Assembly (NCBI GenBank): GCA_945861235.1
Contig: CAMATV010000001.1
Span: 1-33,167 of the forward strand
Reading direction: 5' to 3'
Source: Opitutus sp. GAS368
GTDB lineage: Bacteria > Verrucomicrobiota > Verrucomicrobiia > Opitutales > Opitutaceae
Length of the DNA: 33,167 bases
A model generated the notes under the pieces. The model ran no database searches, was not told where the DNA came from, and saw nothing but the letters and a program-made list of their open reading frames with translations. Below, piece after piece: positions 6,334 to 32,404 of the stretch; the stretch's first letter is position 1; the number at the start of each line of letters is the position of its first letter. A program made the translations under genes and the position numbers.

Positions 6334-6369
6334 CTGGATTTTCAAGGGGGGCGAGTCCGGGAGGGGTTT
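6334..6369 (-). repeat. Repeat module M2, copy F (variant), between the transducer stop and the first GH-like gene
   Basis: ctggattttcaaggggggcgagtccgggaggggttt compared with the consensus CTGGATTTTCAGGGGGATCGGATCCGGGAGGGGTTTAA. Same length, 5 substitutions. Confidence 0.85.
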
Positions 6370-6424
6370 GTAAAGAGGCGCCCTGTGACAGACACGATTT
6401 TACCCACAAGCGACTGCCCTATCT

Positions 6425-9400
6425 TCAGAACTCTCCCTTGATCCCCACGGTCAGCGATATGCCAGAATCAATCATCCGGTCCAACCTGGCATGGCTGGGC
6501 GTGTTCTTGCTCCGATCGTAGATCAGGACCCTATCCTTATACCCGCCGGCGAGCAGATCGCTGATCTGCCCATAGATAGATAGCTTTTTTGTAACCTGAT
6601 ACTCGCCGGAGATGGTGTCGCGGTCAATAGCACCCTGATAGGTGGATCTCCCGACATCTGCCGTAGCCGTGCGCCGTGTCTCGCCCTGCTGGGCCATAGT
6701 AAATTTCAGGATGTACCGCGGCCGGACAAGGCTTACCCCCCAGCTCATCATCTTCGGGTTGAATTGGGCGAAGTCAGAGGTGGTAGATCCGCTCAACGAG
6801 TTCTTCGTGTAGTTGAAAAACACCTGCACTCCGCTTGCCCAGGAGTGAAGGAAGGCGAGGTCCTGCTTGTAGGAGAATTCGAATCCCTTGACTCTCGCAT
6901 CTCCGCCATTGCCCCGGGTCACGATGTCATAGTTCAGATACGATTCGCCGGACGGCACCCCGTAAAGGGACAGCAGCTCCTGAGTGGCTGCCGTGCGGAC
7001 CACGGTGAAAAAGTCCTTAATGTCTTTCTGGAACACGGAAACGGTGCCGAAGCCTCCCTTGAGGAAATACGATTCCAGTGAAAGATCGTAGTTGTTGGCC
7101 GTCCATGGCTTCAACCCGGTGTTGACCACCGTGACGGTCCCTTGCGACGTGGCGCCTGCATCGGAGATCGTAATGCCAGGAATGACCAATCCCAGGTCGG
7201 GCCGACCGATGGTGCTGGCAAAACCGAATCGCGCCAGCAGCCGCTCAGAGATCTCGTACGTGGCATTCAGGCTCGGGAAGAGGCCATCGTAGCTGCGCTC
7301 TGTCCGAGCTTCCCGCTCCCTGAGGACCAGCTTTTCCGCCTGCAATGGATTTGTGGTAATCGGCACGGGTTTGCCCGTCCCGTCTAGGACCAGCTTGCCG
7401 GACCCGTCCCGTACGTATTTCGCGTTGGGATCATTCAGCGGCCCCATGCCATCGTCTGCCGTCTTTTCGAACCGCACGCCGCCGACCAGGAATAGCCGGT
7501 TTCCCAGCAACTTCACATCGCCCCGAAAATATCCGGCGGTAATTGTTTCTGTCAGTTCCTTGGAATTGTTCACCCTAGTCCGGTACGTCGTCAGGTCATT
7601 GAGCACGAAATAGCCCGGCGAGGTCATGAAAAGATCATAGACCTTGAGCGGGCTGACCCACAGCACGGGTCTGCCGCCGTTCAGTATCCCTTGGTCCAGA
7701 TGAAGAGCAGTATCCACTAGAGCATTGTTGCCGGCCAATCGATCGGCTGCTGTCCCCGTGGGCCGGAAGGCGAACGTCCTATCGTTTCTAGCACCGTCAA
7801 ACTCATCGACCAAAATTGAAGCCCCAAATTTTATAGAGAGTGGAACTCTCGCGGAGAAACTGCGCTCGAGGCCAACTCTGGCCTCGCTTCTCGATACCTC
7901 GGTCTGTTGGCTTGCTGTGGATGCACTGGTGATGGTGTAAATGTTGCCATTGTTGCCATCTACAAGTTTTCCGGCCCGGTCTGTGGTCGTAAAGGCGGAA
8001 GGAACAAGATCGTATATTTCATTACCGTATCCGATACCAGAGCCTTTGATAATGAGATCTGAAATTGAGGCGCCCAAACCAGAGAAATACGGAAAACCTT
8101 CACTTCCGAAACTGGTTCTTGAGCGAGAGTTGCTCAGTTGGCCGGCTATCTTCCATAGATCGCCGCGATGACTGTACTTAAATACCCCATGCTTAGTTTC
8201 TATATTAAATTGGTTCCAGCCGAAAGTTTGCGAAAGCGAACCCACCCCAGTGCTGGCGCCCTGGGTGGAGGTTCGATCACCCGTGGCCCCGGCACCATAG
8301 TTGGTGTTGAGCGTGGACACCCCATCCGCGCTGCCCCTCCTGCGATATGATAGGCTGGCGCTGAATTCATTCCTGTCGTCCGGCTTCCATTCCACGCCCA
8401 CCCGTCCGTCCCTTGTTGCTTGCACCCCGGGGGAAGTCCGCACCCCATTCGAGGTTTGAATCAGGAGGTTCTCGTCCCATCGTGGGTAAGCTACGGTGTT
8501 GTCACTATAATTCAGAATGTTCGCCGCGGAGAGCGAGATTGCCAGCTTTTTGCCGATGGGGTGCATGTAAGCCACATCAAATGACGGCATAATCCGCCTG
8601 ATGGTAGAAACGTGCGACGAGGGAGTTCCCACATCGACCTCCTGCAGGGTCAACGGAAGATCGGTCCGAAGCAAACTATACACCGTGTAGGTAAAGAGTG
8701 GCCGCGTCCTTTCAAACCCGCTCTTGGTGATGATATTGATGCTGCTGCCCATACCGCTGGCCGGTAGGTCGGGCGTAGGCACCTTGTTCACCTCGACCCG
8801 CGAGACATTGGACATGGGGAGTGCAGCGGCCCTCGCTACCCTGCCAGGGCCAGTCAGGCCGGATGATACCAATGGAGCGCCATCCATCAACAATTCTGTC
8901 GTGTACGCCGGCATTCCCCTGACGGCGATACTGGAGGCCACGTTGCCAGAATAGACGATCGACATGCCCGGGATGAACTTTAGCAAATCCCCCACGTTGC
9001 CCTGACCGTTGTAATTGTACTCATCGAGGGCCACGACGTTCTTGATGTTTGCAGCGTTGCGCTGCTCATTCAGGGCGAGCGTCTGCGCGTTCATCTCGCG
9101 ACTCTCGATGACCGTCATCTCGCTCATGACTACGGGATCTCCCGCTCTGGCGAGTTCGAAATCACGCGTGGTGGTTTCCCCCGGTCTTACAATTGCAACC
9201 TCGATTTTCGCTTCCAGTCCGACATACGCCGCCCGAATCCGCACTTCACCGGCGGGCGCACCCGGCAGCCGGTAAGCGCCATTCACGTCGGTCGTGGTCA
9301 CTAGGGTGGAGCCAAGGATGGTGATGCGAGCGTTGCTAAGGTAGGACCCGGTGACCGAATTCAGGACTCGGCCTTCGATGGTTGAGCTAGTTTGGGCATC

Positions 9401-9910
9401 GACCGCAGTGGCTACGGCGAGCAAGCCGGTAAGAAAAGTGAGAAGAGTACGTGTTTTCACAGGAGGAGATTCGTTGTGTTTAGGTTGATTGGTTTTGGGT
9501 GTGTCGGGCGGCGGGGCGGGTGGGTTAGCCACCGGCGGGCCGCGTGATCGCTCCGACTCTTCCTGCTCCTTCTGCGCAGGTGCGGTCCGTTTTCGACTGA
9601 CGACAAGGGCACCCGTGGACTCGTCCTGGACGGCGAACAGAGCCGTGCCGGAGAGCATCACGCGGAGGGCATCGAGCGCCGCATACTCGCCGCGGACCGG
9701 CTGCGTCTTCTCGTCTCGGACATTTTCAACCAAGTAGACAATCTGGCAGCCGGAGTTACGGGCAAACTGCGTCAGCGTCGCGGCGGCATCACCACCCGGC
9801 ACATTGTAACTCTTCGTGGCCGCCGTGGCACCGGAGGTCGCCGACACGCCGATCGCGCAGCAAAATGCGGCTGCGAAAACCGGAGAGGCGGGGTAGATTT
9901 TTTGTGCCAT
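6425..9910 (-). CDS. TonB-dependent transducer: signal peptide, STN signalling domain, Pro-rich linker, CarboxypepD_reg-like domain, plug and beta-barrel
   Basis: Track ORF 6425..9991 starts at TTG. ATG at 9910 gives MAQKIYPASPVFAAAFCCAIGVSATSGATAA. The STN-like stretch is YNVPGGDAAATLTQFARNSGCQIVYLVENV...LRVMLSGTALFAV. This is followed by PPVANPPAPPPDTPK, then IEGRVLNSVTGSYLSNARITILG..NGAYRL, plug and barrel, ending in the aromatic ...GIKGEF. Confidence 0.85.
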   Translation of the reverse strand: MAQKIYPASPVFAAAFCCAIGVSATSGATAATKSYNVPGGDAAATLTQFARNSGCQIVYLVENVRDEKTQPVRGEYAALDALRVMLSGTALFAVQDESTGALVVSRKRTAPAQKEQEESERSRGPPVANPPAPPPDTPKTNQPKHNESPPVKTRTLLTFLTGLLAVATAVDAQTSSTIEGRVLNSVTGSYLSNARITILGSTLVTTTDVNGAYRLPGAPAGEVRIRAAYVGLEAKIEVAIVRPGETTTRDFELARAGDPVVMSEMTVIESREMNAQTLALNEQRNAANIKNVVALDEYNYNGQGNVGDLLKFIPGMSIVYSGNVASSIAVRGMPAYTTELLMDGAPLVSSGLTGPGRVARAAALPMSNVSRVEVNKVPTPDLPASGMGSSINIITKSGFERTRPLFTYTVYSLLRTDLPLTLQEVDVGTPSSHVSTIRRIMPSFDVAYMHPIGKKLAISLSAANILNYSDNTVAYPRWDENLLIQTSNGVRTSPGVQATRDGRVGVEWKPDDRNEFSASLSYRRRGSADGVSTLNTNYGAGATGDRTSTQGASTGVGSLSQTFGWNQFNIETKHGVFKYSHRGDLWKIAGQLSNSRSRTSFGSEGFPYFSGLGASISDLIIKGSGIGYGNEIYDLVPSAFTTTDRAGKLVDGNNGNIYTITSASTASQQTEVSRSEARVGLERSFSARVPLSIKFGASILVDEFDGARNDRTFAFRPTGTAADRLAGNNALVDTALHLDQGILNGGRPVLWVSPLKVYDLFMTSPGYFVLNDLTTYRTRVNNSKELTETITAGYFRGDVKLLGNRLFLVGGVRFEKTADDGMGPLNDPNAKYVRDGSGKLVLDGTGKPVPITTNPLQAEKLVLREREARTERSYDGLFPSLNATYEISERLLARFGFASTIGRPDLGLVIPGITISDAGATSQGTVTVVNTGLKPWTANNYDLSLESYFLKGGFGTVSVFQKDIKDFFTVVRTAATQELLSLYGVPSGESYLNYDIVTRGNGGDARVKGFEFSYKQDLAFLHSWASGVQVFFNYTKNSLSGSTTSDFAQFNPKMMSWGVSLVRPRYILKFTMAQQGETRRTATADVGRSTYQGAIDRDTISGEYQVTKKLSIYGQISDLLAGGYKDRVLIYDRSKNTPSHARLDRMIDSGISLTVGIKGEF

Positions 9911-10003
9911 GCGCAGGAGGTGCTTCACTCCTGAGACGCCGTATTCAAAAAAATGGGTAACAAACATCTTCACGAATCGGAGCGTTCCCAAGGATTAAAG
10001 GCG

Positions 10004-10029
10004 CCGCGAGAGGGCAACCGCCCTCGCGG
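10004..10029 (-). terminator. GC-rich hairpin just downstream of the FecR gene (candidate terminator/attenuator before the transducer gene)
   Basis: CCGCGAG(A)GGGC-aacc-GCCCTCGCGG: 10 bp with a 1-nt bulge. In minus sense it is followed by CGCCUUUAAUCCUU, only a partial U-tract. Confidence 0.4.
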
Positions 10030-10069
10030 AGTGGCTTGATTCCATTCTCCGATCATCGGGCCCACGGCA

Positions 10070-10112
10070 CCCACGGAACAGTCGGAAGGCCAGATTCCAA
10101 GTGTTCCGTGGG
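10070..10112. promoter_or_regulatory. 11-bp perfect inverted repeat CCCACGGAACA / TGTTCCGTGGG (21-nt spacer) between the FecR and transducer genes
   Basis: Arms at 10070-10080 and 10102-10112. A near-copy of the left arm (cccacggcac) sits immediately upstream at 10061-10070. Confidence 0.6.
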
Positions 10113-10227
10113 TAGCCCTGCTTTGGCCTTTGGTGGCGGCTGCGCCTCTACGGGTAGTTCGTGGGGGTTCCTCATCCATCGGTGGGACTGCGGTGGGGCG
10201 GCGTAGGCGCGCTGTAGAGTTTCCGGC

Positions 10228-11250
10228 CTATTGCGCCTTGCGCAGCACGATCTCGCGATCACCGCGGCGCTCGGCCTTCAGATCGCCGCCGCGCTCCAGC
10301 AGGCTGACAAACGCCTCGACGTTTCCGGCGGCAAACGTGCCACCCACCCGCCGGTCGCCCAAGTCGGCGTCGCCCAGATGCAGTTGGGTGCGGTTTTGCC
10401 GGTTGAATTGCGCAATGACCTTTCGCAGGGGCGTCTCGGAAAAGACCAGCATCTGCTCCTGCCAGGCGATCGCCTCCTGTAATTGCGCGGGCTCCAAACG
10501 CGTGATGATTGGAATCACTTCGGCCGCACCGCGCGGCACGAACGCACGGTCGCCTTTTTCCAAGAGCGGCGCTGCGGCCGGCGCCTCCGGTTTTGCTCCG
10601 GTCCACTGCTCGGGGGTGGACAACCGCACCTTTCCGGAGGTCACCACCACTTCGATCGACGCCGCGGCCATGCGGACGTTAAACGCGGTGCCCACGGCCC
10701 GGACCGTGACTCCACCGGCGGTCACCATAAACGGGCGCGCCTCATCGTGCGCCACCTCGAAATGCGCTTCGCCCGCATCCAGCAGCACGCGGCGCGCGGC
10801 GGAAGAATACTGCACCTTTGCGTTGCTGTTGGCGTTTAGTGTCACGGTGGAGCCATCCGGCAAGTCGATCTTCCGCATCATGCCCGCCGCGGTCGCATAG
10901 CCCGCATTCGGATTTCGGAGATCGTTACGCCACCAGATAAACCCGAGCATGAGCGCCGCGGCCGCCGCGAGCGACCAGACGACCGAGGCTCGGGACCACA
11001 TCGTCTTTCCGGCGGGTTGATGGCTCTGATGAGTGGCGCGGGCGGCAACCGGTGGCATTGCTTCAAGGATGCTCCAGGTCTCCTCCAATCGCTCAACGGC
11101 GTCTGCATGTCGCGGGCTCGCCGTCCGCCAGCGCTCGAATTCCTTCGCGCGTCCAGAGGCAAAGCCTTCGTCGCGTTCGATGAGCCAGGCCACCGCCGCC
11201 TCCTCGATGGGATCATGGTCGTCGAACGGATCGCTTTCCTGGGCGTTCAT
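10228..11250 (-). CDS. FecR-family anti-sigma factor / transmembrane sensor
   Basis: 340 aa. N-terminal anti-sigma region (EEAAVAWLIERDEG...RHADAVERLEETW), a single TM segment (VVWSLAAAAALMLGFIWW), a FecR core (DLPDGSTVTLNANSNAKV) and a C-terminal receptor-contact-like region. Its ATG overlaps the sigma stop (ATGA at 11247-11250). Confidence 0.88.
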   Translation of the reverse strand: MNAQESDPFDDHDPIEEAAVAWLIERDEGFASGRAKEFERWRTASPRHADAVERLEETWSILEAMPPVAARATHQSHQPAGKTMWSRASVVWSLAAAAALMLGFIWWRNDLRNPNAGYATAAGMMRKIDLPDGSTVTLNANSNAKVQYSSAARRVLLDAGEAHFEVAHDEARPFMVTAGGVTVRAVGTAFNVRMAAASIEVVVTSGKVRLSTPEQWTGAKPEAPAAAPLLEKGDRAFVPRGAAEVIPIITRLEPAQLQEAIAWQEQMLVFSETPLRKVIAQFNRQNRTQLHLGDADLGDRRVGGTFAAGNVEAFVSLLERGGDLKAERRGDREIVLRKAQ

Positions 11251-11804
11251 GACGCGGCCTTTTTCATGGTTTTTCCGTTCTGCAGCAGATCGCGCGAGGC
11301 GAAGAATTTGGCGCAGCGCCGAACGCCGCGGCCCAGTTGCACCTTTACAGTGTCGGTCGTGACGCCAAGGCGCTCGGCAATCTCCTTGTAGCTGAGGTTT
11401 TCCTGAAACCGCAGTTGCACCACTTCACGGCAGCGCTCCGGGAGACTGGCGAGGGCTTCCGCCAACGTCTCGTGCCGTTGGCGTTCATCCAAGAGATCGC
11501 CGACCCCGGGGGCCTCTTCCAGCGTAGGCAGTTCGTGCAATTCGGTCATTTCGACATGCTCATTTCTGGCCCGGCGGCGGAACAGATCCACGGCGACATT
11601 GTGCGCGGTCGAAAAGAAAAACGCCCGCGCGTGTCTGATCCCATCGCCTTTGGTCTGCGCCCGCAACATGCGTGAGAAAGACTCCTGCACGACGTCGTCC
11701 TGATCCCGCAGCGACGGGAAGCGCGACGTCAAATAGGCTCGGACGGCCGGTTCGTGCGGTTGCACATGCTCGGCAAACCATTGGAGTTCTTCAGGAGGGG
11801 ACAT
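11247..11804 (-). CDS. ECF-type RNA polymerase sigma-70 family factor
   Basis: 185 aa. Region 2-like: DVVQESFSRMLRA...AFFFSTAHNVAVDLFRRR. Region 4 HTH: LPERCREVVQLRFQENLSYKEIAERLGVTTDTVKVQLGRGVRR. The 4-nt overlap with the FecR gene indicates translational coupling. Confidence 0.9.
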   Translation of the reverse strand: MSPPEELQWFAEHVQPHEPAVRAYLTSRFPSLRDQDDVVQESFSRMLRAQTKGDGIRHARAFFFSTAHNVAVDLFRRRARNEHVEMTELHELPTLEEAPGVGDLLDERQRHETLAEALASLPERCREVVQLRFQENLSYKEIAERLGVTTDTVKVQLGRGVRRCAKFFASRDLLQNGKTMKKAAS

Positions 11805-11895
11805 CGGTCGGGGTTTTCCGTCGGGCGCAATAATGATTACCGCCGCCGGCCTACATGGGAAGTCAGGAAGAGCGGAAGTCGGCGAAAAGACTGAA

Positions 11896-12013
11896 AAAAC
11901 ATACCTGCGAGACCTGCGGGTGGTTTCTTTCGGTCACGGCCAAAACCCGGTTTTTGGGCGGGGGCTGATCGGAAGCTGGATTTTCAGGGGGATCGGATCC
12001 GGGAGGGGCTTTT
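11896..12013 (-). repeat. Repeat modules M1+M2, copy A, upstream of the ECF sigma gene
   Basis: 11896-11984 is identical base for base to 31983-32071. M2 (ctggattttcagggggatcggatccgggaggggctttt) occupies 11976-12013. Confidence 0.95.
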
Positions 12014-12083
12014 AACTTCGGCTTGGCTCCCGACCTTGGGCATCGCGACTGGTCTGCTGCGTGCGGCCGTGGACCCCTAGCAG

Positions 12084-12148
12084 GGTTCAGGTTTTAGTCG
12101 GCACATTCCGGCGGCTGACATTGGACATTAAAACCTGAGCCTTTTTTT
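12084..12148 (+). terminator. Hairpin plus T7 run, with intrinsic-terminator polarity on the plus strand only
   Basis: GGTTCAGGTTTTA (12084-12096) pairs with TAAAACCTGAGCC (12129-12141): 13 bp including one G-T pair. Followed by TTTTTTT at 12142-12148. The 32-nt loop can form an inner 6-bp stem (GTCGGC/GCTGAC). Confidence 0.55.
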
Positions 12149-12300
12149 GTTCCCTTGCCGAACCCCGGAATCAATTGCGCCGAAGAACGTTTACCCAGCT
12201 TCAACCGCCGCGACCCCAAACCCCAAAGCCTTCTCTGAGGAAGCGCGACGAGCGGCCGGCCATGCCCGAAAGCGGGCGCGAACGTCGAGCCTTTGGTCGG

Positions 12301-13614: not shown

Positions 13615-13675
13615 CGTGGGAGGGAGGTTTGTGCTGAAGATTTTTTTGGAAATCGGTGAGAGGGGTCGCCGCGGC

Positions 13676-16690: not shown

Positions 16691-16748
16691 AGTGGCGGAA
16701 ATTTTACTCAAAAGAATACCTTTTTGAGACGGGGGTTACTGATAACGG

Positions 16749-17028
16749 ACTGGCTTTTCAGGGGGATCATAAGGGACTGGATTTTCAGGGGATCGGATCC
16801 GGAAGGAGTTTAAGGGGAGGGGCATGGTGGGAGCTGGATGAGTTAGCCGTAAATCAGTCGATTTTGAGATGGCGGCGGGTTCGGCTGAGGATGGAGACTT
16901 GGGGTGGGGAACGGCTGCGACGGAAAGGGGGCTTTCGGGCGCGAATCGAGGCTCTGCTTGCCGATTTGGGGCAAGCAGCGCGGGGTGGGGATGCGCGGAT
17001 GCAGTGATCCGGATCGCTCGGAGTCAAG
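16749..17028 (-). repeat. Repeat modules M2 (partial copy plus full copy) and M3, copy D, upstream of TBDR-2
   Basis: Partial M2 at 16749-16768 (actggcttttcagggggatc). Full M2 at 16777-16813. M3 at 16814-17028 aligns with 32190-32404; both are 215 nt, with about 30 differences by hand count. Confidence 0.9.
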
Positions 17029-17042
17029 GAGCCAGCGTTTTT
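17015..17042 (+). terminator. Weak hairpin plus T5 run at the plus-strand end of M3 copy D
   Basis: CGCT(C)GG at 17015-17021 pairs with CCAGCG at 17032-17037 (6 bp, 1 bulge, 10-nt loop). Followed by TTTTT at 17038-17042. Confidence 0.3.
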
Positions 17043-17196
17043 AGAATCGCGGTAAACGCCTAACCGGGGTCGGAACCCCTTGCGCGGACGCGCCACCAAT
17101 GACACCCCACACGGCCTTCGGCATCAGACTGCTAGACGGGCTTAGAAAATACCCGTGCAAGGACGATGGAGCTATTGCCTCGCGGAAAGAACCGCT

Positions 17197-17331
17197 CACC
17201 TGCATGCACGATCTGCGGCTATATCGCGGCATCGCGCACGCTGTTGATTTCTGTCACGGCCAAAATCCGATTTTGGGGCGGGGGCTGCTAGGAAACTGAA
17301 TTTTTAGGGGGATCGGATCCGGGAGGGTTAA
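17197..17331 (-). repeat. Repeat modules M1' (diverged) plus M2, copy C, abutting the TBDR remnant
   Basis: ...ttctgtcacggccaaaatccgattttggggcgggggctgctaggaaactgaatttttagggggatcggatccgggagggttaa. The dyad CCAAAATC-C-GATTTTGG replaces the CCAAAACC-C-GGTTTT(T)GG of copies A and B. Confidence 0.85.
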
Positions 17332-19886: not shown

Positions 19887-20089
19887 ATCCAGTTCCCGAT
19901 TGAAATCAAGCGCGGCGCAAAGGACTGTCGTCGTCCTTTCCACGACCTTCGGCGTCGCGTTACCCGTGACGCTGAGAGTCGTTGCCCGTTTCCCTCCGCC
20001 CACCGGATCCGCCCTCGCGGCCGACGCGATCTGCCCCGTCCATAAAATCGAGCTCCCCCCACCTTCGACGGTTTGTTGCTGCTCGGAAA

Positions 20090-20124
20090 CTGGATTTTCA
20101 GCAAGAATCGGACACGGTCGGGCC
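20090..20124 (-). repeat. Repeat module M2, degenerate copy H, upstream of the lone alpha/beta-hydrolase gene
   Basis: ggaaactggattttcag is intact. The 3' half (caagaatcggacacggtcgggcc) matches the consensus only partially. Confidence 0.6.
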
Positions 20125-22148: not shown

Positions 22149-22204
22149 GGGAGCGGAAAGAGAGGTTGCGTTGGCGAGGGGAATTGGTGGGTGCAATCAA
22201 CGCA

Positions 22205-25394: not shown

Positions 25395-25474
25395 GAGTGT
25401 AGCCTGTAAATCCTGTTCATCCTGTCGTCCGTTTAGATTGGTTTCTTTGTCAGCCGCGGTACGAGGCATCCTGA

Positions 25475-28381
25475 CTAGAAAACACCTTTCACGCCGAAGA
25501 CCCAGCTCGCGCCCTGGATTTCGAATTGGTTGAGCATGCCGCGCTGGTTTCGCAGATAGACGTAGCGGGCCTGGTTGGTGATGTTGCGGCCCGTGACCGT
25601 GAGCGATGTCCGTTCGGTGAGGCGGAAGTTCAGGCTCGTGCCGAGGAACAGGTAGGTCGGCAGATAACCGGTGGCGTTCTCCAGGGCCTCGGAGCTCCAA
25701 GCGCCGCGGAAGGCTACGTTGAGCCGCCGATACCGGAACGAAACGCCGGCCGACGCGGTTTTCGGCGCCGCGCGGTAGGCCAGTTCGGGGTCGCTGCGGG
25801 TGAATTGATTATAGTTCGCGAAAACGCCCAGTCCCTTGAAGACCCCGGGCAGAAACGTGAGCTGCTGGCTGTACGCGAACTCGATGCCCTTGTTCGTGAA
25901 ATCGCCGACGTTGGAGAGCGCCGTGAACGAGTACCCCGGATAGTCGTCACCCAGCCCGATGCTCTCGGCCGGGATGCCCGTGACCGACCGGTGGAGATCG
26001 CTGATGTCGAATTGAAACACGCCGATGGAGAACGTGCCCGCCGGCTCGAAGTACTGTTCGAGGCGGATCGAGTAGTTGTTGCCGTGTTCGGGCTTGAGCT
26101 CGGGATTCGGCAGCGTGCCGGTGCGGGTCGTGTCGTTGACCGAGAGCACGCCCGAGAGGCTGTTCAGATTCGCGCGCTGGATCGACTGGCTGAGCGACGC
26201 GATCGCCATGAGTTTGTCCGTGAAACGGTACCGCACCGCACCGCTGAAGAACGGGTCGGCGTAGTCGCCCCGGCGCTTCCTCAGCACATTCCGCTCGTAG
26301 CTCTTGCCCTCATTATCGGTCTTCTCGTACCGCACGCCACCCTGCACCATCAGGCGGCCGAAGCGGCTGTTCGCCAGAAAGTATCCCGCATCGATGTATT
26401 CGCGCGCCGAGCGCTCCGGCTGCAGGTTGCCCGCGGCGGTGAGATTGGCCGGATTGGGAATGAAGTACTCCGGATGCTGGCGCTGGATCACGCCGATCGC
26501 GTGCCGGTCGGGGAACGGAATCTGGCGGTCGAAAATGTTGCCGCCGGTGAAAGGATCGAAGGGCGCCACCGTGTCGGGCTGGTCCGCCTGCAGTCGATCC
26601 CCCGTTGGTCCGACGTAGGTCCAGGAGTAGCTGCCGGTGAGGCTGTAAAAACTCGCGGCGGTGCTCTTCAGTCCGACCTTGAAGAAGGTCGGATAGGTCC
26701 AGTTCATCGCGTACTTCGCGTTGATCTGGGCCAGCAGGTTTTTTGTGGTCGGTTCGTTGGGCGCCCGCACGATGTTGTTGGTCAGGCTGGTGCCCCGCCA
26801 GTTGTTCAGCACGTAGAGGTCGGGACCGGCGGTCTGCTGGAAGTCGAAGGCGGTTTCGCCGCTGCCGGAGCGCCGCGCCGTCCAGCCGACCCCGAACAAT
26901 TGCATATTGGCCGAACCGACTTCGTCGTCCATGGGCCCCTGCGCGCGCAGATTGCTGCGGTATTGACCGAGCCGGCTGTAGGCGAGGCTGGCGTCGAGCG
27001 TGAGCCGCTTGCCCTCGAAGAAGAGCTGGGGCGAAAAGGAGTGGGTATTGCTGATCCGGTGGCTGAGGCCGCCGGCGAGGTTGAACCGGTTGACGTTGTT
27101 GGCCGTAGGCACGCCGATGAAAACCAGGTCGTTCGAACCCGCCCCCAAGGTCGCCCGGGTGGCGGTGATGGCGAAGCTCTTGTTGTAGTTGCGCGCGTCC
27201 TCCCAGCTCGCCTGACCGCGCAATGCCAGCGTGAGCTGCGGGGTCAGCTTGTACTCGAGATTCAATCCACCGCCGCGCCGCTTCTGGATGATGGCGCCCT
27301 TGCCCCACTGCAGGCCCGTGATCACGGTGGGCAGGGGGCCCGGGGCCGTCGGCAGAGGGTTGTAGGTGAAATTCAAAAAGCCGGAGCCGCTGGTGGAGTT
27401 GGTCTCGGCCAGGTTCATGACCACGCCCAGCTTGCCATCGAGGAAGACATCCGAGTAGTCGAGCACGAGGGACGGATTGAGCGGCCGGCTCTGGCCGTCA
27501 TTGGGGCCGTTGACCTTGCCGAGTGTGAGCGGGTTGTGCGTGTTGTAGATCGAGTAGGCTTCCCAGGAGAAGAACCGGCCCTTGCGCTGAAACGCACTCT
27601 TGCTCCGCATGTTTATTGAGCCTGCCGGCGCGTCCGCGTCCATCTCCGCGCTGTTAGTCTTGTTGATCTCGATCGTGTCGGTGGCATAGGCAGAATAGGA
27701 ACTGAGCGCGGGCGCGCGCGTCGCGCCACTGGTCCGCACGCCGTCGACCATCAGCGCGCCATACTTGGAGTCCATGCCGCCCATGCTGACCGTAAACGGC
27801 ACGTCGCCCGAATAGATCACCTGCATGCCCGCCACGTATTGCAGCACGTCGCCGACATTGCCCTCGACGATCGAGCCGAAGGTGTCCGTCGCCACGACAC
27901 TCTTCACCGTCATGGCCGAGCGCTGCTCCATGATCGCCTTGGCCGTGCCTTCGCGGGCGGCGGTGACGGTGAAGCGATCGAGGGCGACGACATTCCGGCC
28001 GGTGTCGGTCGGCTGACTGCTCTTGAGGTTGAAATTGCGGACGACGATTTCACCGCCGCTCACCGTCACTGCCGTGGAGGCGGATTCGTAGCCGGTGTAG
28101 CTGACGATCACGGTCGCGTTTCCCGGCGGCACATTGACGAGGCGGTAGCGGCCGTCGCTCTGCGTCACGGCGCGAAGCTCGGTGCCCTGAAGGCGCACCT
28201 CGGCATTACCGAGGTATTCGCCGCTGGCGGGATTGAGCACGCGACCCTCGATGATGCCGCCTCTTGCCGCCGCCGCGGCGGGGCCGGAGGGCGCGACCGC
28301 AGCAGCGGCTTGGGCCGGTGGCCGCGGCGCCAGACTCAGCACGATCCAACTAATCAGCAGGGCGGTGGGGAGAAGCTTCAA
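25475..28381 (-). CDS. TonB-dependent receptor with CarboxypepD_reg-like domain (TBDR-3); probable TTG start
   Basis: Track ORF 25475..28672 (TTG). There is no in-frame ATG before the mature domain. TTG at 28381 gives (M)KLLPTALLISWIVLSLAPRPPAQAAAA, then GGIIEGRVLNPASGEYLGNAEVRLQGT..DGRYRL, plug and barrel, ending ...GVKGVF. The start position is uncertain. Confidence 0.8.
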   Translation of the reverse strand: MKLLPTALLISWIVLSLAPRPPAQAAAAVAPSGPAAAAARGGIIEGRVLNPASGEYLGNAEVRLQGTELRAVTQSDGRYRLVNVPPGNATVIVSYTGYESASTAVTVSGGEIVVRNFNLKSSQPTDTGRNVVALDRFTVTAAREGTAKAIMEQRSAMTVKSVVATDTFGSIVEGNVGDVLQYVAGMQVIYSGDVPFTVSMGGMDSKYGALMVDGVRTSGATRAPALSSYSAYATDTIEINKTNSAEMDADAPAGSINMRSKSAFQRKGRFFSWEAYSIYNTHNPLTLGKVNGPNDGQSRPLNPSLVLDYSDVFLDGKLGVVMNLAETNSTSGSGFLNFTYNPLPTAPGPLPTVITGLQWGKGAIIQKRRGGGLNLEYKLTPQLTLALRGQASWEDARNYNKSFAITATRATLGAGSNDLVFIGVPTANNVNRFNLAGGLSHRISNTHSFSPQLFFEGKRLTLDASLAYSRLGQYRSNLRAQGPMDDEVGSANMQLFGVGWTARRSGSGETAFDFQQTAGPDLYVLNNWRGTSLTNNIVRAPNEPTTKNLLAQINAKYAMNWTYPTFFKVGLKSTAASFYSLTGSYSWTYVGPTGDRLQADQPDTVAPFDPFTGGNIFDRQIPFPDRHAIGVIQRQHPEYFIPNPANLTAAGNLQPERSAREYIDAGYFLANSRFGRLMVQGGVRYEKTDNEGKSYERNVLRKRRGDYADPFFSGAVRYRFTDKLMAIASLSQSIQRANLNSLSGVLSVNDTTRTGTLPNPELKPEHGNNYSIRLEQYFEPAGTFSIGVFQFDISDLHRSVTGIPAESIGLGDDYPGYSFTALSNVGDFTNKGIEFAYSQQLTFLPGVFKGLGVFANYNQFTRSDPELAYRAAPKTASAGVSFRYRRLNVAFRGAWSSEALENATGYLPTYLFLGTSLNFRLTERTSLTVTGRNITNQARYVYLRNQRGMLNQFEIQGASWVFGVKGVF

Positions 28382-28782
28382 AGGTGGAGAAACTGGGCGG
28401 GCATGGTGGGGAACTGACCTGGCGGAGGCGCGGCGTCCGAGGGGGTAAACGCCGGCGAGAGGAGTGAGGCGCACGATCCGGGGAAAGTAAACCGGGTTTT
28501 TCGAAGTAGGTTTCCGGCCGGATATCCGGGCAGGACCGGGAAGAAAATGGTCCTTCCGTTCGGCGGTGGGACGCGCGGAATTGGCAATGACGTTTCGCAC
28601 GACTCGCGATTGTCGGCGCAGAACCCTGGGCGTTGGCTCCTGGCCGGACACCGGCGCTTCCGTTCCTTCCAACTCCGGCCGGCCCCAGAATTCTTATGAG
28701 CACGAGCACGACGAACCGCAGGGACTTTCTCAAATAAGGCATGATCGGCACGGCGGGCGTGTCGATCGGCACCATGGGTTTC

Positions 28783-28832
28783 GCTGATAGAAAACTGGAT
28801 TTTCAGGGGGATCGGATCCGGGAGGGGTTTAG
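28783..28832 (-). repeat. Repeat module M2, copy G, between TBDR-4 and TBDR-3
   Basis: gctgatagaaaactggattttcagggggatcggatccgggaggggtttag. The core is identical to the consensus. Confidence 0.9.
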
Positions 28833-28854
28833 TGGCGGAATTACGCCCTCCCGG
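28818..28854 (-). terminator. 9-bp perfect GC-rich hairpin 20 nt downstream of the TBDR-4 stop; one arm is part of M2 copy G
   Basis: CCGGGAGGG (28818-28826) pairs with CCCTCCCGG (28846-28854), with a 19-nt loop. No adjacent U-tract in minus sense, so terminator function is uncertain. Confidence 0.4.
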
Positions 28855-28874
28855 AACCTAACTGTCCTGTCCGA

Positions 28875-31800
28875 TTAGAACCGACCGGAAAGTCCGGCGG
28901 TGATGGTGAGGAAGTTTTGCGTGTAAGCCTGGTATCGGTGTGAGGTACCCTGATAAAAGGCCTGCGGCTCCTTGGTCAAGTTGCTGATATCGAGTGTGGC
29001 GGTGAGCTTCGGATTAATTTGGTAACCCATGCCCCAATCCAACACCGTTCGGGCATAGCGATAGAGATTAGCCCCGGGGGCGGTCGCGCTGAACGAGGAA
29101 ATATAGGAGCCGTTGTAGTTGGCGATAACGCGCGTGTTAAAGTTTTTGTAGGACCACCGCACCATGACATTTCCCAACTTCGGTACAAAACCGGCCACTT
29201 CACCGGTCTTCCGCTGGACGCCGGCGAGGTTGCCGAAATCACCTTCGGTGGTGAGCGTGGTGTAATTGGCCGAGAGGGCCATTCCCTTCCAAAGCCCGGG
29301 CAGAAACGTGAACTGCTGCTGGTAGCTCAATTCAAAGCCGTTTACTTTGGCGGTACCCGCATTGAGCGAAGTTTGGATGCGATAGCCCGCATACTCGCCG
29401 TTGAACCCGTTACCGTTGCCACTGGAGACAATCCCGTTGTCTAATCCACTCACGATGTAGTCGGTAATATTCTTGTTGAACCAGCCCACGGACAGGCTGC
29501 CCAAGGGTTCAAAATAATATTCGAGCGTCGCATCCCAATTGGTCGCCATCTGCGGCAGCAAGGACGGATTGTTGATGGTGATCGTCTCCGTCGACTCGCT
29601 GACCGACTCATTAGGCATGAGGTTGGTCGGAGCAGCGCGGCCGAAGCCGGTCGACCAGCTCAAGCGGGCCTTGAGGTTCCGCGTAATATCGTGGTGGATA
29701 TGGACGCTCGGGAAGGTCTTGGTGTAGCTCCCCTCCAGAGTACGCCGGTAGGCATCGTAATCGCGAAATGCCGATCCGCGGGGGTCGGAAACTTGCTGGG
29801 CGACGGTGCTGACGTTCGTGCCCTTCGTGCGCACCCACCCGTAGCTTTCTGTTTCGGTTTTTTCCTGACGCACCCCGGCAAGAAAGCCGCTGCGGGACAG
29901 CCAGCCTTGGGAGCCGAACTTGCCCTTGAACATGCCATAACCGGCGGTGACGTCCTCGGTCACACCCCGATCGCCAGTGTAGGCATTTTGGTGAAAGAAG
30001 TAGAGATCCTCGGACCAAAGTGCCGGATTTTTTGGCGCGCGGTCCGTCATGAAATCAGAGACCTGCCAGATCGGCATATTCTTGCCTTCGGCAAACGTGC
30101 CGTAAAACCCGATGGTGGGATCCGTGGGAAGGGCTGCGGCACCGAGGTAACTCCACCGGCGGCTATAATTTTGGATCTTTATGTCCAGTTGCCGCCAAGT
30201 GAATCCAGTTTTGAAGACGATGGGGGCAGCCGTGGGCAGGGTGTAAATCAGGTCCGCGTTGAAATGTTTGTTATACTGATTCTGAGTCTGCGGACTGGCA
30301 GCTAGCCCGTTGGCGATCGGGCGGTAATTATTGGGATCCGAGATATCCGGACCGGCGGTTTGGGTAAGACGGGAAAAATCCGCGCCGTTAGGGCTCTCGA
30401 GGGTCCAGCCAGCGCCAGCCATGCGTTGCGTGAGCGCGTATTGGCCGCCCTTCCCGCCACCCGTGGTCTGACCGGTCATAAGATTATTCCGGCTGTAGCC
30501 GGTATTATAATCGAGTTTGATCGGCCCGTAGGTGTGTTCACCCGCAAAGGACGCGAGCCACTGCCGGACGATGTAGCTGTTCGGACCCGTCGTGCTCAGA
30601 TCAATCAGCGACGTGTTCGTCGCGCTCGTCAGGTAGTTGGCCGTGGTCAGCGGCCGAACGGTGGTCACGGTATCCGTCCAACCGGGATTAATGCCCGTGG
30701 CGAGGGAGGTCGCGCTGGGGACGGCGGTGCCGGAGCCGGTGTAAGCCCGCATGGTATAGCCACGGCGCATCCGCTCGATATTATGGTTGAACAGGGAGTT
30801 AACCGTGAACTTTGAAGTATCCGAAAACCGATACTCCGTCTTCACGTTTACGTTCTTCTGCGCCCGGTTATTGAAATTGTTTCGAATACTGTAATCCCAA
30901 ACGTACGCCGGAGACGCCGTCACGTTTTGGAAATTGCGATTAACGATCACGCCGCCAATCGCGTTTTCACTATAGCGGACGTTGGCCTGCACTCCGAGAT
31001 TACGCTGTTCCCCAAAAACGCTGAAGACTTCCTGATAGGAGAGCGTGAACAGTGGATGATAACGATGCTGCGCCCGGAGCGGAACATGCTCCGTGAAGGG
31101 AGGCGCGCCGCGAACCATCGAGCTGAAGTTCAGAATCCGCCTTTCCTTCATGTTGAGGGTCGACCGGGTTTTCAAATTGAGGTTGCCGCCGAGCGAGTCG
31201 GCGCTCGCATCGGGGGTCAACCCCTTGATCATTTCCATCTGCTCGTACATCGTCGCCGAAACCGTGTGCACTTCCAGCGCGCGGTTCGTACCGATGGTGG
31301 GCATGCGCTGGCCATCCATCGTCACCGTGTTCAGGTTGCCCGGCATGCCGCGGACTTGGAACCCGGTGTTGAGCCCCTCGTCATTCGTGGAAGGGGCGAC
31401 GCCGGGCAGGCGCATCATTACTTCGCCCACACTCATGTTCGGCAGGTTGCCGAAGGAATCCATCGCCACCACGTTCTTCACGTTATTCGCGTTGCGTTGC
31501 ATCGTAAGCGCTAGGGCATTGCCCTCGCGTTCCCCGGTTACCTTGAAGGCATCCAGTTTATAGACGCTGCTCGTGAGCTCGGCATTGCTGGTCGAACGCT
31601 GGCTCCCAGCGACCGAGATCGATACTTTCATCGTATCAAGACCCAGATAACTGATCGAAATCTCGTGAGTTCCCGCCGGTAGGCCAGTCAAGACGTAACG
31701 GCCGGAGTTGTCCGACTGAGTGGAGAGTCCGAGTTGGGGCACCTCGACGATGGCGCCCTCAAGGCCCCTTTTCGTTTCGGCGTTGCTAACAAAGCCGGTG

Positions 31801-31919
31801 AGGCTACCGCTTCCCCTGGCTTGAGAGGTGGCGGTGGCGGCAGGTTGGGCGAGCGAAGTGGGCAACCCTTGGAGGGCAGCCCACGCGGTTAGTCCGACTA
31901 ACAGGGGCAATATTTTCAT
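28875..31919 (-). CDS. TonB-dependent receptor with CarboxypepD_reg-like domain (TBDR-4), paralog of TBDR-2
   Basis: Track ORF 28875..31958. ATG at 31919 gives MKILPLLVGLTAWAALQGLPTSLAQ. Motifs: SLTGFVSNAETKRGLEGAIVEV...SGRYVLTGLPAGTHEISISYLGL and DAFKVTGEREGNALALTMQRNANNVKNVVAMDSFGNLPN. Ends ...AGLSGRF. Confidence 0.88.
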   Translation of the reverse strand: MKILPLLVGLTAWAALQGLPTSLAQPAATATSQARGSGSLTGFVSNAETKRGLEGAIVEVPQLGLSTQSDNSGRYVLTGLPAGTHEISISYLGLDTMKVSISVAGSQRSTSNAELTSSVYKLDAFKVTGEREGNALALTMQRNANNVKNVVAMDSFGNLPNMSVGEVMMRLPGVAPSTNDEGLNTGFQVRGMPGNLNTVTMDGQRMPTIGTNRALEVHTVSATMYEQMEMIKGLTPDASADSLGGNLNLKTRSTLNMKERRILNFSSMVRGAPPFTEHVPLRAQHRYHPLFTLSYQEVFSVFGEQRNLGVQANVRYSENAIGGVIVNRNFQNVTASPAYVWDYSIRNNFNNRAQKNVNVKTEYRFSDTSKFTVNSLFNHNIERMRRGYTMRAYTGSGTAVPSATSLATGINPGWTDTVTTVRPLTTANYLTSATNTSLIDLSTTGPNSYIVRQWLASFAGEHTYGPIKLDYNTGYSRNNLMTGQTTGGGKGGQYALTQRMAGAGWTLESPNGADFSRLTQTAGPDISDPNNYRPIANGLAASPQTQNQYNKHFNADLIYTLPTAAPIVFKTGFTWRQLDIKIQNYSRRWSYLGAAALPTDPTIGFYGTFAEGKNMPIWQVSDFMTDRAPKNPALWSEDLYFFHQNAYTGDRGVTEDVTAGYGMFKGKFGSQGWLSRSGFLAGVRQEKTETESYGWVRTKGTNVSTVAQQVSDPRGSAFRDYDAYRRTLEGSYTKTFPSVHIHHDITRNLKARLSWSTGFGRAAPTNLMPNESVSESTETITINNPSLLPQMATNWDATLEYYFEPLGSLSVGWFNKNITDYIVSGLDNGIVSSGNGNGFNGEYAGYRIQTSLNAGTAKVNGFELSYQQQFTFLPGLWKGMALSANYTTLTTEGDFGNLAGVQRKTGEVAGFVPKLGNVMVRWSYKNFNTRVIANYNGSYISSFSATAPGANLYRYARTVLDWGMGYQINPKLTATLDISNLTKEPQAFYQGTSHRYQAYTQNFLTITAGLSGRF

Positions 31920-31982
31920 GGTCTGATTTTCGTGGGGGGCAGATCGTGGAAAGTTCACTCACTCTCAAGAAACGGCATTCGT

Positions 31983-32071
31983 AAAACATACCTGCGAGAC
32001 CTGCGGGTGGTTTCTTTCGGTCACGGCCAAAACCCGGTTTTTGGGCGGGGGCTGATCGGAAGCTGGATTTT
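31983..32071 (-). repeat. Repeat module M1, copy B, 64 nt upstream of the TBDR-4 start codon
   Basis: 89 nt identical to 11896-11984: aaaacatacctgcgagacctgcgggtggtttctttcggtcacggccaaaacccggtttttgggcgggggctgatcggaagctggatttt. Confidence 0.95.
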
Positions 32072-32151
32072 TTTCGACGCCGGTCACTTCCACCTTGGCG
32101 AGTTGCTCGATGTGGAGCAGGACACTGCCAAGTTGAGCGGCTGCTAGGAAA

Positions 32152-32404
32152 CTGGATTTTCAGGGGGATCGGATCCGGGAGGGGTTTAAGGGGAGGGGCA
32201 GGGGGGGATTTGGATGAGTTAGACGTAAATGAGTCGATTTTGGGAGGGCGGCGGGTTCGGGTGATGCTGGGGACTTGGGGTGGGGAACGACTGCGACCGA
32301 AAGGGGGATTGCGGGCGCGAATCGAGGCTCTGCTTGCCGTTTGGGGACAAGCAACGTGGGGTGGGGATGAACGAGCGGTGAGCTCCGAATCGCTCGGGGT
32401 CAAG
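32152..32404 (-). repeat. Repeat modules M2+M3, copy E
   Basis: M2 consensus copy at 32152-32189. M3 at 32190-32404 aligns with 16814-17028. Confidence 0.9.

Follow-up and report, generated by a model that had tools for sequence, protein, structure and literature searches.

The short repeat M2, found between the genes of the window (the whole 33,167-nt stretch of Opitutus sp. GAS368 DNA analyzed here), is an IS-derived dispersed repeat made up of solo or 5'-truncated ends of an IS91-type element. It is very probably the right-end terminal unit of IS91-family elements, that is, the side downstream of the transposase (oriIS side). The IS91-family group that carries M2 populates freshwater Opitutaceae genomes, with dozens of solo copies between genes. 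Among the roles proposed in the preliminary description, the core of a small mobile or recombinogenic element is the one that agrees with these results. That description had regarded a match to a known IS or MITE terminus as incompatible with a repeat tied to the receptor super-locus, and an IS91-family right end is what M2 now appears to be.

Read in gene sense, M2 is a 48-nt unit with sharp borders, AAACCCCTCCCGGATCCGATCCCCCTGAAAATCCAGTTTCCTATCAGT, with at least 184 occurrences in 106 stretches from 33 Opitutaceae MAGs. Alignment of 155 distinct copies gave 1.2–2.0 bits at 46 of the 48 positions and about 0.1 bit beyond either border. The repeat first reported is therefore genuine but longer than the 38 bp assigned to it, and its shared left flank, GCTGATxGGAAA, was correctly noticed but is M2's own 3' terminus in gene sense. 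The first 41 nt, ahead of a variable last heptamer, are nearly invariant across the 33 species-level MAGs; such uniformity exceeds what is expected of neutral relics and calls for continued amplification or a constraint of some kind. The gene-sense strand is C-rich, G-poor and predicted to be unstructured. Neither strand folded better than shuffled sequences (z about -0.4), with no palindrome and no significant hairpin, and no sigma-70-like promoter or terminator-like site overlapped the two copies in the scanned stretch 28000–33167, in line with the earlier statement that the repeat is neither promoter nor hairpin. The Rfam search recommended at that time was run with M2 and matched no family. 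Downstream of the M2 3' end there is a weak preference for AA (67 of 184), and GTTC/CTTG, the target tetranucleotide of IS91, was not seen in the flanks of the 184 copies.

IS91-family elements transpose in rolling-circle mode, using a Y2 HUH transposase. In the intact elements found here, M2 forms the last 48 nt downstream of a transposase of 517–535 aa with Zn_Tnp_IS91 and Y2_Tnp domains and HUH and YxxxY motifs; the P0021 transposase carries HPHVHV and RYYGWYSNK. By tblastn, identity to annotated IS91, ISCR1, and ISVsa3 transposases was 25–35%. The stop codon of P0212 (517 aa, Zn_Tnp_IS91 and Y2_Tnp; L128–L133) is followed by a 225-nt tail, CCCCTCCCCTT, and an M2 variant ending CCTACCAGC; these elements have three unrelated right flanks, some of which, as the contigs are metagenomic, may reflect assembly choices at a repeat. 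P0227 (522 aa; L118–L127) is followed by a tail and then a 37-nt M2 variant, present singly or as a tandem pair according to the sample, and in P0238 (535 aa; L134) nothing but the 21-nt core AAAATCCAGTTTCCTATCAGT closes the tail. Each transposase subfamily thus has its own repeat variant, and the M2 3' core is common to more distant IS subfamilies. This core closes with TTCCTAT, which is shared by the oriIS ends of an E. coli IS91-family element (...TCAATTTCCTATAC) and of ISCR1 (...GGTTTATACTTCCTATACCC), the M2 end being ...CCAGTTTCCTATCAGT.

Alternatively, M2 could be an independent REP-like host repeat beside which IS91-like elements insert with site and orientation specificity. The IS would then end at ...CCCTCCCCTT, with M2 as its target and not its terminus. 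Several IS families target REP sequences, solo M2 units are far more numerous than IS copies, and solo units have their 5' border exactly where tail and M2 meet in the IS, as this explanation would have it. However, M2 differs between transposase subfamilies (48 nt in P0212, 37 nt in P0227, only the 21-nt core in P0238), as would be expected of an end carried by the IS but not of a host target, and its 3' core contains the oriIS motif TTCCTAT. In addition, the tail motif CCCTCCCCTT was followed by M2 in 27 of 29 occurrences, the other two leading to an internally deleted M2 and to an unrelated coding sequence, so that apart from this coding match no tail was without M2. M2 is also non-palindromic. 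We consider a host repeat improbable and treat M2 as an IS end below.

The window holds 7 to 9 M2 copies or part-copies, all on the same strand and every one intergenic, far above chance, and no transposase gene was found within it. The 38-mer with up to 3 mismatches matched the + strand at 11976, 28795, and 32152 and gave no match in shuffled sequences. The 12-mer CTGGATTTTCAG, with up to 1 mismatch, gave seven matches versus 0.08 expected, and a repeat finder returned a seven-member family at 6322, 11964, 16738/16776, 17284, 20078, 28783, and 32140. All copies listed earlier were thus recovered, on the + strand as written, intergenic and in one orientation. By class, there are four solo 48-nt units, two units with about 230 nt of IS tail (D2), and three 5'-truncated cores.

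In gene sense all of these lie on the minus strand. The solo units are a degenerate full-length copy at 6322..6369 (78% identical to the reference copy; read directly), between the TBDR-1 stop (6425) and the start of a GH32-like gene (6247); a full copy at 11964..12013 upstream of the ECF sigma gene (38-mer match, repeat finder); one at 17284..17330 (TAACCCTCCC...TTTCCTAGCAGC; repeat finder, read directly); and one at 28783..28830 (38-mer match, comparison with L108), the 3' end of which is an exact rearrangement breakpoint. The IS tail is still attached to the copy at 16769..16811, which lacks the last 4 nt and one C (repeat finder, read directly), and to the full copy at 32140..32187 (exact 38-mer match, read directly). 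The partial extra copy reported at 16749 proved to be a 31-nt 5'-truncated unit at 16738..16768 (GATCCCCCTGAAAAGCCAGTCCGTTATCAGT; repeat finder, 12-mer search, read directly), which directly follows the copy at 16769–16811 in the nested pattern of the L064 array described below. The copy at 20090 is also present, but just as the 24-nt 3' core at 20078..20101 (CTGAAAATCCAGTTTCCGAGCAGC; repeat finder, 12-mer search), and its 21-nt core is all that makes up the right end of the P0238-type IS in L134. The earlier list had missed a 21-nt 3' core at 32051..32071 (AAAATCCAGCTTCCGATCAGC; read directly), which is part of an 89-nt exact duplicate.

M2 combines with two companion modules, B and D2, as mosaics. 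The D2 modules at 16812..17042 and 32188..32404 (both minus strand) match the non-coding tail located 3' of the transposase stop codon in a second subfamily of IS91-like elements. Together with M2, they show 84.8% identity over 277 nt and 82.2% over 270 nt, respectively, to the tail plus M2 of L069, which lie downstream of a frameshifted transposase gene. D2 plus M2 is therefore a 5'-truncated IS fragment. The segments 16788–17028 and 32164–32404 are 86% identical to each other. The B modules, a second repeat family, also lie on the minus strand. A partial one at 11896..11963 directly follows the M2 3' end and exactly duplicates part of 31983–32071, the 89 nt at 11896–11984 being 100% identical to that segment. 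A complete short one was identified by a survey of the B family at 31940..32050, upstream of TBDR-4, and a long one (B') lies between two M2 units at 17043..17283, with 81–92% identity over about 240 nt to sequences in L040, L054, L104, L029, and L087.

In L113, a strain 99.4–99.9% identical to the window, a 506-nt indel is bounded by M2 copies. L113 has two M2 copies, 506 nt apart, at the ECF sigma site, and B' at 17043..17283 is part of the polymorphic 506-nt unit. The window copy at 11964..12013 is a hybrid whose 5' part (GGATCC) is that of L113 copy a and whose 3' part (CAGCTTCCGATCAGC) is that of copy b, and so looks like a recombination product. L114 carries the same sigma gene without M2 and without B, homology beginning at window position 11897. 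The L113 contig ends inside M2 copies, at window positions 6346 and 17298. Homology to L108 (89%) ends at 28782, next to the 3' end of M2 at 28783, where M2 cuts off the stump of a divergent GFO_IDH_MocA oxidoreductase gene (28696..28782, + strand; 29 codons, one in-frame stop). The stump reads MSTSTTNRRDFLK, a stop, and GMIGTAGVSIGTMGF in the window versus MSTSTTNRRDFLKQGMIGTAGVSIGAMGFSAKS... in the intact L108 gene. For a single solo M2 unit no clean pair of empty and filled sites was found, and we infer movement of the 48-nt unit itself.

It was suggested that M2 stands in front of essentially every transcription unit of the receptor super-locus. This does not hold as a specific link. The appearance arises because the genes near M2 all lie on one strand and because M2 occupies and inflates most long intergenic spacers. 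Since every gene flanking an M2 copy in the window is on the minus strand, M2 polarity there equals gene direction. The polarity of M2 is a regional property: of 66 copy pairs in a locus with more than 500 nt between them, 65 had the same orientation, versus 70% of gene pairs.

A cis-regulatory site of the receptor super-locus, either an operator or a promoter element for the ECF sigma gene (11247–11804), is very unlikely. The window copies precede TBDR, sigma, and hydrolase genes in one orientation, and in L108 the TBDR-3 orthologue has a decayed core-like sequence about 100 nt upstream. TBDR genes are also modestly enriched beside M2, being downstream of 13 of 70 co-oriented copies (18.6%) and upstream at 10 of 80 (12.5%), compared to a background of 8.5% in M2 loci. 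However, 81% of the genes downstream encode something other than a TBDR, convergent gene pairs flank M2 at about the baseline rate (25 of 99, versus 72 of 372 intergenic spacers), and copies run antisense to Pfam-verified genes in L046, L058, L067, and L098. Tandem nested arrays, the lack of promoter-like hexamers at the two copies in 28000–33167, and the position of M2 at the terminus of transposase-bearing elements also argue against it, as does the difference in M2 between near-identical strains before the same sigma gene, which L114 has without M2. The lack of TBDR specificity, the positions between convergent genes, the antisense copies and the tandem arrays likewise speak against a binding site for a locus-wide regulator and a processing or attenuation signal in leaders, both of which had been proposed.

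Even less credit can be given to an action of M2 as RNA, whether in Rho loading at a C-rich rut site, in 3'-UTR stability or as a processing signal. The C-rich, G-poor, unstructured gene-sense strand would suit such a role, as would the 51 copies co-oriented with flanking tandem genes versus 7 anti-oriented. Nevertheless, the locus-wide orientation holds even where genes flip, Rfam gave no match, a rut site would not be expected to be nearly invariant over 41 nt, and IS membership accounts for the sequence without any RNA role.

One end of the M2 copies, 3' in gene sense, is fixed, and the other is truncated at discrete or variable points. Among 141 scored copies, 108 start at consensus positions 1–4, 3 at 12 and 11 at 28–29. 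The nested array of L064 contains full, 33-nt, 21-nt, and 7-nt units, each ending in TATCRGT, and new units directly adjoin the fixed end of older ones. Truncated and internally deleted derivatives were also found. Target-primed reverse transcription by a retroelement would also leave a 5'-truncated nested series with a common 3' end, and a group II intron lies near M2 in L092, but this origin is hardly credible as M2 physically ends HUH-transposase elements of three subfamilies, carries the oriIS motif common to IS91 and ISCR1, and has no reverse transcriptase consistently associated with it.

As ends of an IS91-type element, M2 copies could arise if a transposase acting in trans nicked the fixed end and displaced the strand starting with M2. 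Displacement would often stop early, and a favored stop, directly after GGGGTTT, seems to resemble the IS left end, directly after GGGGTAAG. Early stops may generate ori-proximal mini-units that integrate elsewhere, preferably beside an existing end. Strand-specific integration of single-stranded DNA would explain the uniform orientation, and the regional polarity is probably tied to replication direction and not to a role in transcription. GC3 skew was -0.18 for genes co-oriented with M2 and -0.11 for anti-oriented genes, a difference whose sign is not as naively expected and which gene content may confound. To the host, these copies are most likely neutral passengers, which make intergenic spacers longer, provide substrates for recombination and cause breaks in assemblies.

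Similar to the IS91 family (IS91, IS801, IS1294) and ISCR elements (ISCR1, ISCR2/ISVsa3), the Opitutaceae elements have a single transposase with N-terminal zinc-binding and Y2_Tnp HUH domains, no terminal inverted repeats, and a non-coding tail of about 170–290 nt downstream of the gene, with a conserved ...TTCCTAT... terminus. Their derivatives retain the ori-side end and vary at the other, in agreement with what has been published on IS91, the left end of which is dispensable, and on one-ended transposition. Different from these elements are the transposases, 25–35% identical and with a long acidic C-terminal extension, the C-rich 27-nt segment that extends the M2 terminal unit, the GTTC/CTTG target unseen at M2, and the occurrence of the 48-nt unit in dozens of solo copies per genome, along with tandem nested arrays and a regional orientation that is almost uniform. 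We know of no description of such solo-unit abundance, with arrays and regional polarity, for IS91 or ISCR.

M2 also resembles PATEs of the IS200/IS605 family and short non-autonomous eukaryotic Helitrons in being a short, transposase-less, intergenic unit of high copy number that keeps only cis-acting end(s). In IS608 and ISDra2, orientation bias has reportedly been explained by insertion into single-stranded DNA at replication forks. PATEs, however, carry subterminal hairpins at each end and require a Y1 enzyme, whereas M2 has no significant hairpin and is apparently only the ori-side end of a Y2 element. With REP/BIME, ERIC, and BOX repeats it shares a short, abundant, intergenic and modular nature (here M2/B/D2 mosaics), as well as recombination between copies and assembly breaks. 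REP elements are imperfect palindromes, RAYT-linked and often in inverted pairs, whereas M2 is non-palindromic, almost never inverted within a locus, and part of an IS91-type element.

What decides the membership of M2 is the DNA around intact transposase genes, which makes it the terminal unit of IS91-family elements. Homologue searches, after many fragments, yielded complete proteins (514-547 aa) in which Zn_Tnp_IS91 and Y2_Tnp occur together; over 60 full-length proteins, about 490-590 aa in size, have this domain pair, and their genes lie directly upstream of a tail followed by M2. The N-terminal Zn_Tnp_IS91 domain (PF14319) was matched in protein P0001 at E = 1.5e-15, and Y2_Tnp (PF04986, profile positions 1-179) in P0021 at E = 2.5e-21. 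By eye, P0021 has an HUH motif, HPHVHV, within WHPHVHVIATAG and the YxxxY motif as YYGWY within VRYYGWYSNKSRG; with these catalytic motifs present, it is a predicted Y2 HUH transposase. A tblastn search of plasmids with P0212 gave 25-35% identity to transposases labeled "IS91 family", "ISCR1 family" and "ISVsa3 family" (E 1e-13 to 2e-16), and P0265 is named "IS91 family transposase" by NCBI. The IS group itself is a further member of this family, which was already known.

The order of gene, tail and M2 recurs with different transposases. The stop codon of P0212 (517 aa; loci L128-L133) is followed by a 225-nt tail, CCCCTCCCCTT and an M2 variant ending ...AAAATCCAGTTTCCTACCAGC, beyond which lie three unrelated right flanks. 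P0227 (522 aa; L118-L127) has a different tail, CCCTCCCCTT and a 37-nt variant, AAACCCCTCCCCCATGCCAATCCAGTTTCCTATCAGT, which occurs singly in some samples and as a tandem pair in others. After the stop of P0238 (535 aa; L134) the tail terminates with nothing but the 21-nt core AAAATCCAGTTTCCTATCAGT. M2 comes next after 27 of the 29 occurrences of the tail motif CCCTCCCCTT, the other two leading into an internally deleted M2 and into unrelated coding sequence. In ten loci a conserved stretch of about 260 nt (module A) directly precedes M2. It forms the non-coding tail behind a gene; the encoded protein finishes in ...VRYYGWYSNKSRG...DPLKCPLCSG..., which is an IS91-type transposase C-terminus. 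As a candidate non-coding RNA, module A had no Rfam match and proved to be this 3' tail.

The repeat itself is well defined. The 38-mer of the preliminary description, at three or fewer mismatches, matches the window at 11976, 28795 and 32152, and shuffled sequences gave no match; the 12-mer CTGGATTTTCAG at up to one mismatch occurs there seven times against 0.08 expected. All members of the seven-member family returned by the repeat finder (6322, 11964, 16738/16776, 17284, 20078, 28783 and 32140) are on the plus strand, in agreement with the single orientation described earlier. A pattern scan with one genome per species found the M2 core in 106 stretches from 33 assemblies, nearly all of them MAGs of freshwater Opitutaceae; these MAGs are represented in time-series metagenomes of Mendota, Erken and Trout Bog. 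Alignment of 155 distinct copies gave a 48-nt unit, AAACCCCTCCCGGATCCGATCCCCCTGAAAATCCAGTTTCCTATCAGT in gene sense (the minus strand of the window), with 1.2-2.0 bits of information at 46 of 48 positions and about 0.1 bit beyond both borders. The "extended left flank" is indeed shared sequence, but as the 3' end of this unit and not as a separate flank. The last heptamer is variable and its commonest version depends on the genome, being TATCAAT in CAMDOF01, TATCGGT in SXSC01 and TTCCAGT in several others; the fetched parts of the first two MAGs hold at least 42 and at least 26 copies, respectively. Some M2-bearing contigs (L020, L021, L022, L037, L067 and L075) came from bins named Rubrivivax, Akkermansia muciniphila, Chthoniobacter flavus, Pedosphaera or Limisphaerales. 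The "Rubrivivax" contig L020 is 100% identical to the Opitutaceae contig L047, which suggests mis-binning or mis-naming, not spread outside the family.

Among known systems, IS91, IS1294 and ISCR are the closest to the M2 elements, sharing with them domain architecture, catalytic motifs, annotated relatives, the lack of inverted repeats and a terminal motif. M2 ends CCAGTTTCCTATCAGT, an E. coli IS91-family element (L136) ends ...TCAATTTCCTATAC, and ISCR1 (L137) ends TATACTTCCTATACCC, also written as ...GGTTTATACTTCCTATACCC. TTCCTAT is common to all three at an equal terminal position, and the homology between copies stops 5-7 nt later. We take the TTCCTAT-bearing end downstream of the transposase gene to be the oriIS of IS91 and ISCR elements. 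The left end common to the IS copies in L107 and L026, CTTACCCCATAATTTGGGTATAGC, is by inspection not inverted relative to the right end. IS91-family elements make no target-site duplication and have the tetranucleotide target GTTC/CTTG at the ori end. M2 is followed by AA in 67 of 184 cases, a weak preference, and its variable last four bases, C-R-R-Y, might stand in for the target tetranucleotide. A search for the empty site of a single M2 unit, with joined flanks and all-against-all BLAST over 107 loci, returned only filled orthologues.

The preliminary description had placed M2 in front of nearly every transcription unit of a receptor super-locus and had considered a locus-wide regulatory role. 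Within the window, in our own ORF calls, every M2-flanking gene is on the minus strand, plus-strand calls occur only at the two ends of the window, and the neighbors comprise four TonB-dependent receptors (TBDRs) with CarboxypepD_reg and Plug domains, an ECF sigma factor, a FecR protein, an M19 dipeptidase, a GH32-like protein, two AXE1-like hydrolases and two GFO_IDH oxidoreductases. Across all loci, in gene-context counts that rest on our own rough ORF calls with key cases checked against Pfam, 166 of 189 copies are intergenic. In spacers between tandem genes, M2 is co-oriented with both neighbors 51 times and anti-oriented seven times; 25 copies lie in convergent and 16 in divergent spacers, close to the background, in which 72 and 66 of 372 spacers are of these kinds. 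A TBDR is the next gene downstream in 13 of 70 cases and upstream in 10 of 80; TBDRs make up 8.5% of all genes in these loci. Two M2 copies that lie over 500 nt apart within one 8-kb stretch have equal orientation in 65 of 66 cases (gene pairs, 70%), and separate tiles of one contig likewise agree. The genes antisense to an adjoining M2 in L046, L058, L067 and L098 are genuine by Pfam (Der GTPase, pseudouridine synthase, TBDR, Ser/Thr kinase, BamB-like protein and DUF4143 ATPase). Given this agreement between pairs and these genuine antisense genes, M2 polarity is regional and independent of the adjoining transcript. The TBDR share, the regional polarity and the IS membership together leave a regulatory element of the receptor super-locus unsupported.

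M2 is neither a promoter, nor a terminator, nor a known RNA: no conserved -10 lies at a fixed distance within the unit on inspection, as an ECF, sigma-54 or sigma-70 promoter would have, and a scan of 28000-33167 placed no sigma-70-like or terminator-like site on the two M2 copies there. The earlier impression that a strong hairpin is lacking also held, the two strands folding at -2.1 and -3.0 kcal/mol (z -0.38 and -0.46 against shuffles). With covariance models, M2, the second repeat family B and the IS tail module D2 had no Rfam match in the window at E <= 1; over 20 related loci the sole match at gathering score was an unrelated group II intron. Classical DDE-derived MITEs have terminal inverted repeats and a target-site duplication, and REP/BIME elements an imperfect palindrome with a stable hairpin. 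The two ends of the 48-mer are unrelated to each other, and TAA stands at both borders in some copies only. M2 is therefore no classical MITE, as it lacks inverted repeats, and no REP, as it lacks a palindrome. A CRISPR-like array is dismissed by the spacing of 20-75 nt and by units that are nested part-copies, and a coding repeat by the lack of 3-base periodicity in conservation and by inconsistent frames.

The copies in the window are solo or truncated derivatives of these IS91-family terminal units and are associated with rearrangements. The D2 modules at 16812-17042 and 32188-32404 match, with 82-85% identity, the tail after the frameshifted transposase gene of a second IS91-like subfamily in L069, so their two M2 copies are 5'-truncated IS fragments. 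The end of the copy at 28783 coincides exactly with the point at which homology to L108 (89% identity) breaks off. In L108, a divergent GFO_IDH_MocA gene is intact and runs past the window breakpoint; the window retains a stump at 28696-28782 on the plus strand, 29 codons with a twin-arginine-like N-terminus and an in-frame stop at codon 14, cut at the M2 3' end. A metagenome scan for relatives of the receptor TBDR-3 gave no match, and orthologous contexts were obtained via protein look-ups. The TBDR-3 ORF (25475-28672, minus strand) has 1065 aa and its orthologues 955-985 aa, covering 87-91%; the ORF as called thus probably begins about 100 codons too early, the real start being near 28380.

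Strains were compared through contigs encoding an identical sigma factor (L112, L113 and L114), L112 belonging to the window's own strain. Upstream of its sigma gene (11247-11804 in the window), L113, 99.4-99.9% identical to the window, carries a pair of M2 copies 506 nt apart, and the segment has the B'-D2-M2 structure of window 16815-17327 (B' being the long form of B). The single window copy at the sigma gene has its 5' variant in common with one L113 copy and its 3' variant with the other, a hybrid that fits recombination between direct repeats. In L114 the same sigma gene follows an AbiEii gene and lacks both M2 and B. Contigs of near-identical strains (L113, L115, L116 and L117) break off within M2 or B, at window 17298, 6346, 11989 and 11925; both repeats systematically break Opitutaceae MAG assemblies, and M2 accounts for many of these breaks. 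The long spacers, mosaic leaders and strain-to-strain differences of the locus stem from repeat insertion and recombination. For annotation, M2 should be masked as an IS-derived repeat and not used as a regulon signal, and the "receptor super-locus" is left without a demonstrated common operator.

Transposition in the IS91 family is rolling-circle and one-ended. M2 derivatives have one fixed end (3' in gene sense), a truncated other end and head-to-tail nested arrays, features that would fit this mode. L107 and L026 contain internally deleted elements, and other loci hold a partial transposase C-terminus with tail and M2, starting at different points. At 2033-3415 (minus strand) of L032, a ceramidase-like N-terminus (PF04734) is fused into the C-terminal 155 residues of an IS91-like transposase; this chimeric ORF represents a gene carrying an inserted 5'-truncated IS fragment. 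Among 141 M2 copies the 5' end falls at positions 1-4 in 108, at position 12 (GGATCC) in three and at positions 28-29 (AAAATCC) in 11, with the other 19 scattered under an ungapped scoring that misplaces variants with a 1-nt indel. In the L064 array, full, 33-, 21-, 20- and 7-nt units form a chain, all ending TATCRGT, each starting directly at, or a few bases beyond, the end of its predecessor, with two sequence variants intermixed. Truncation series and nested arrays form the pattern expected of copying from one fixed end with early stop, existing ends being preferred for integration. On the transferred strand the sequence up to the favored stop is GGGGTTT|, and that of the IS left end is GGGGTAAG|, a suggestive resemblance.

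The mini-units would then be mobilized in trans, by rolling-circle initiation at the fixed end followed by early termination, and regional polarity would arise from strand-specific integration. We tentatively propose, while thinking it somewhat likelier to be wrong than right, that solo 48-nt M2 units are self-standing miniature elements of the rolling-circle type, ori-only and made up of an oriIS nick site and an internal pseudo-terminator, amplified in trans by IS91-family transposases and integrating into single-stranded DNA at the fork. If true, integration of ori-only elements at the replication fork would account for the 65:1 regional polarity. GC3 skew is -0.18 in genes co-oriented with M2 and -0.11 in anti-oriented genes (105 loci with uniform M2 orientation), a difference whose 95% bootstrap interval is clear of 0 with length cut-offs of 600-1800 nt and barely covers it at 2400 nt, whose sign is opposite to the naive replication expectation and for which gene content is a possible confounder. 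The M2-sense strand is C-rich in 78 of the 105 loci. This pattern may be a replication signal or a gene-content effect. ISCR elements mobilize adjoining genes by read-through. If the proposal is true, M2 units could likewise start read-through mobilization of host genes, a candidate segment being the TBDR-4 block abutting the truncated GFO_IDH gene at 28782/28783. We know of no description of abundant ori-only 48-nt units with near-uniform polarity for the IS91 family, and to our knowledge IS91-type elements have been little studied in Verrucomicrobiota. The M2 copies offer a natural record of IS91-type enzyme action, with a fixed end, discrete early stops, head-to-tail re-insertion and strong strand polarity, and they suggest that an ori segment of 21-48 nt is enough for mobilization.

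Some minor features of the window concern other sequences. At 32558-32667 (plus strand) a local search found a SAM-I/IV riboswitch-like match that spans the entire model and scores 37.5 bits, short of the gathering score (41.1), with E = 9e-5. It lies 20 nt upstream of a plus-strand ORF beginning at 32688, in which Pfam gives no domain. The B family (CCCCCGCCCCAAAATCGGATTTTGGCCGTGACAGAAAGAAAC...GTTTCTTAGGAG in gene sense) occurs in the window at 11896-11963, 17043-17283 and 31940-32050, and elsewhere in L024, L029, L041, L044, L054, L069, L078, L087, L092, L099 and L105. It includes an AT-rich hairpin and a variable middle, which may co-vary; its first 41-46 nt are common to about 25 loci. Thirteen of 17 B copies begin directly after the M2 3' end; tandem B-B units also occur. 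A role of B as the IS left end is unsupported, B being absent from all intact IS loci. The stretches 11896-11984 and 31983-32071, upstream of the sigma gene and of TBDR-4, are 100% identical over 89 nt (21-nt M2 core plus 68 nt of B), which points to very recent duplication or gene conversion. Compared with L069 (7050-7160), L092 has an insertion of about 6.2 kb (~160-6420) between D2-M2 and B, containing a group II intron (RF02005, 84.8 bits, 5739-5951) whose 3' end abuts the start of B.
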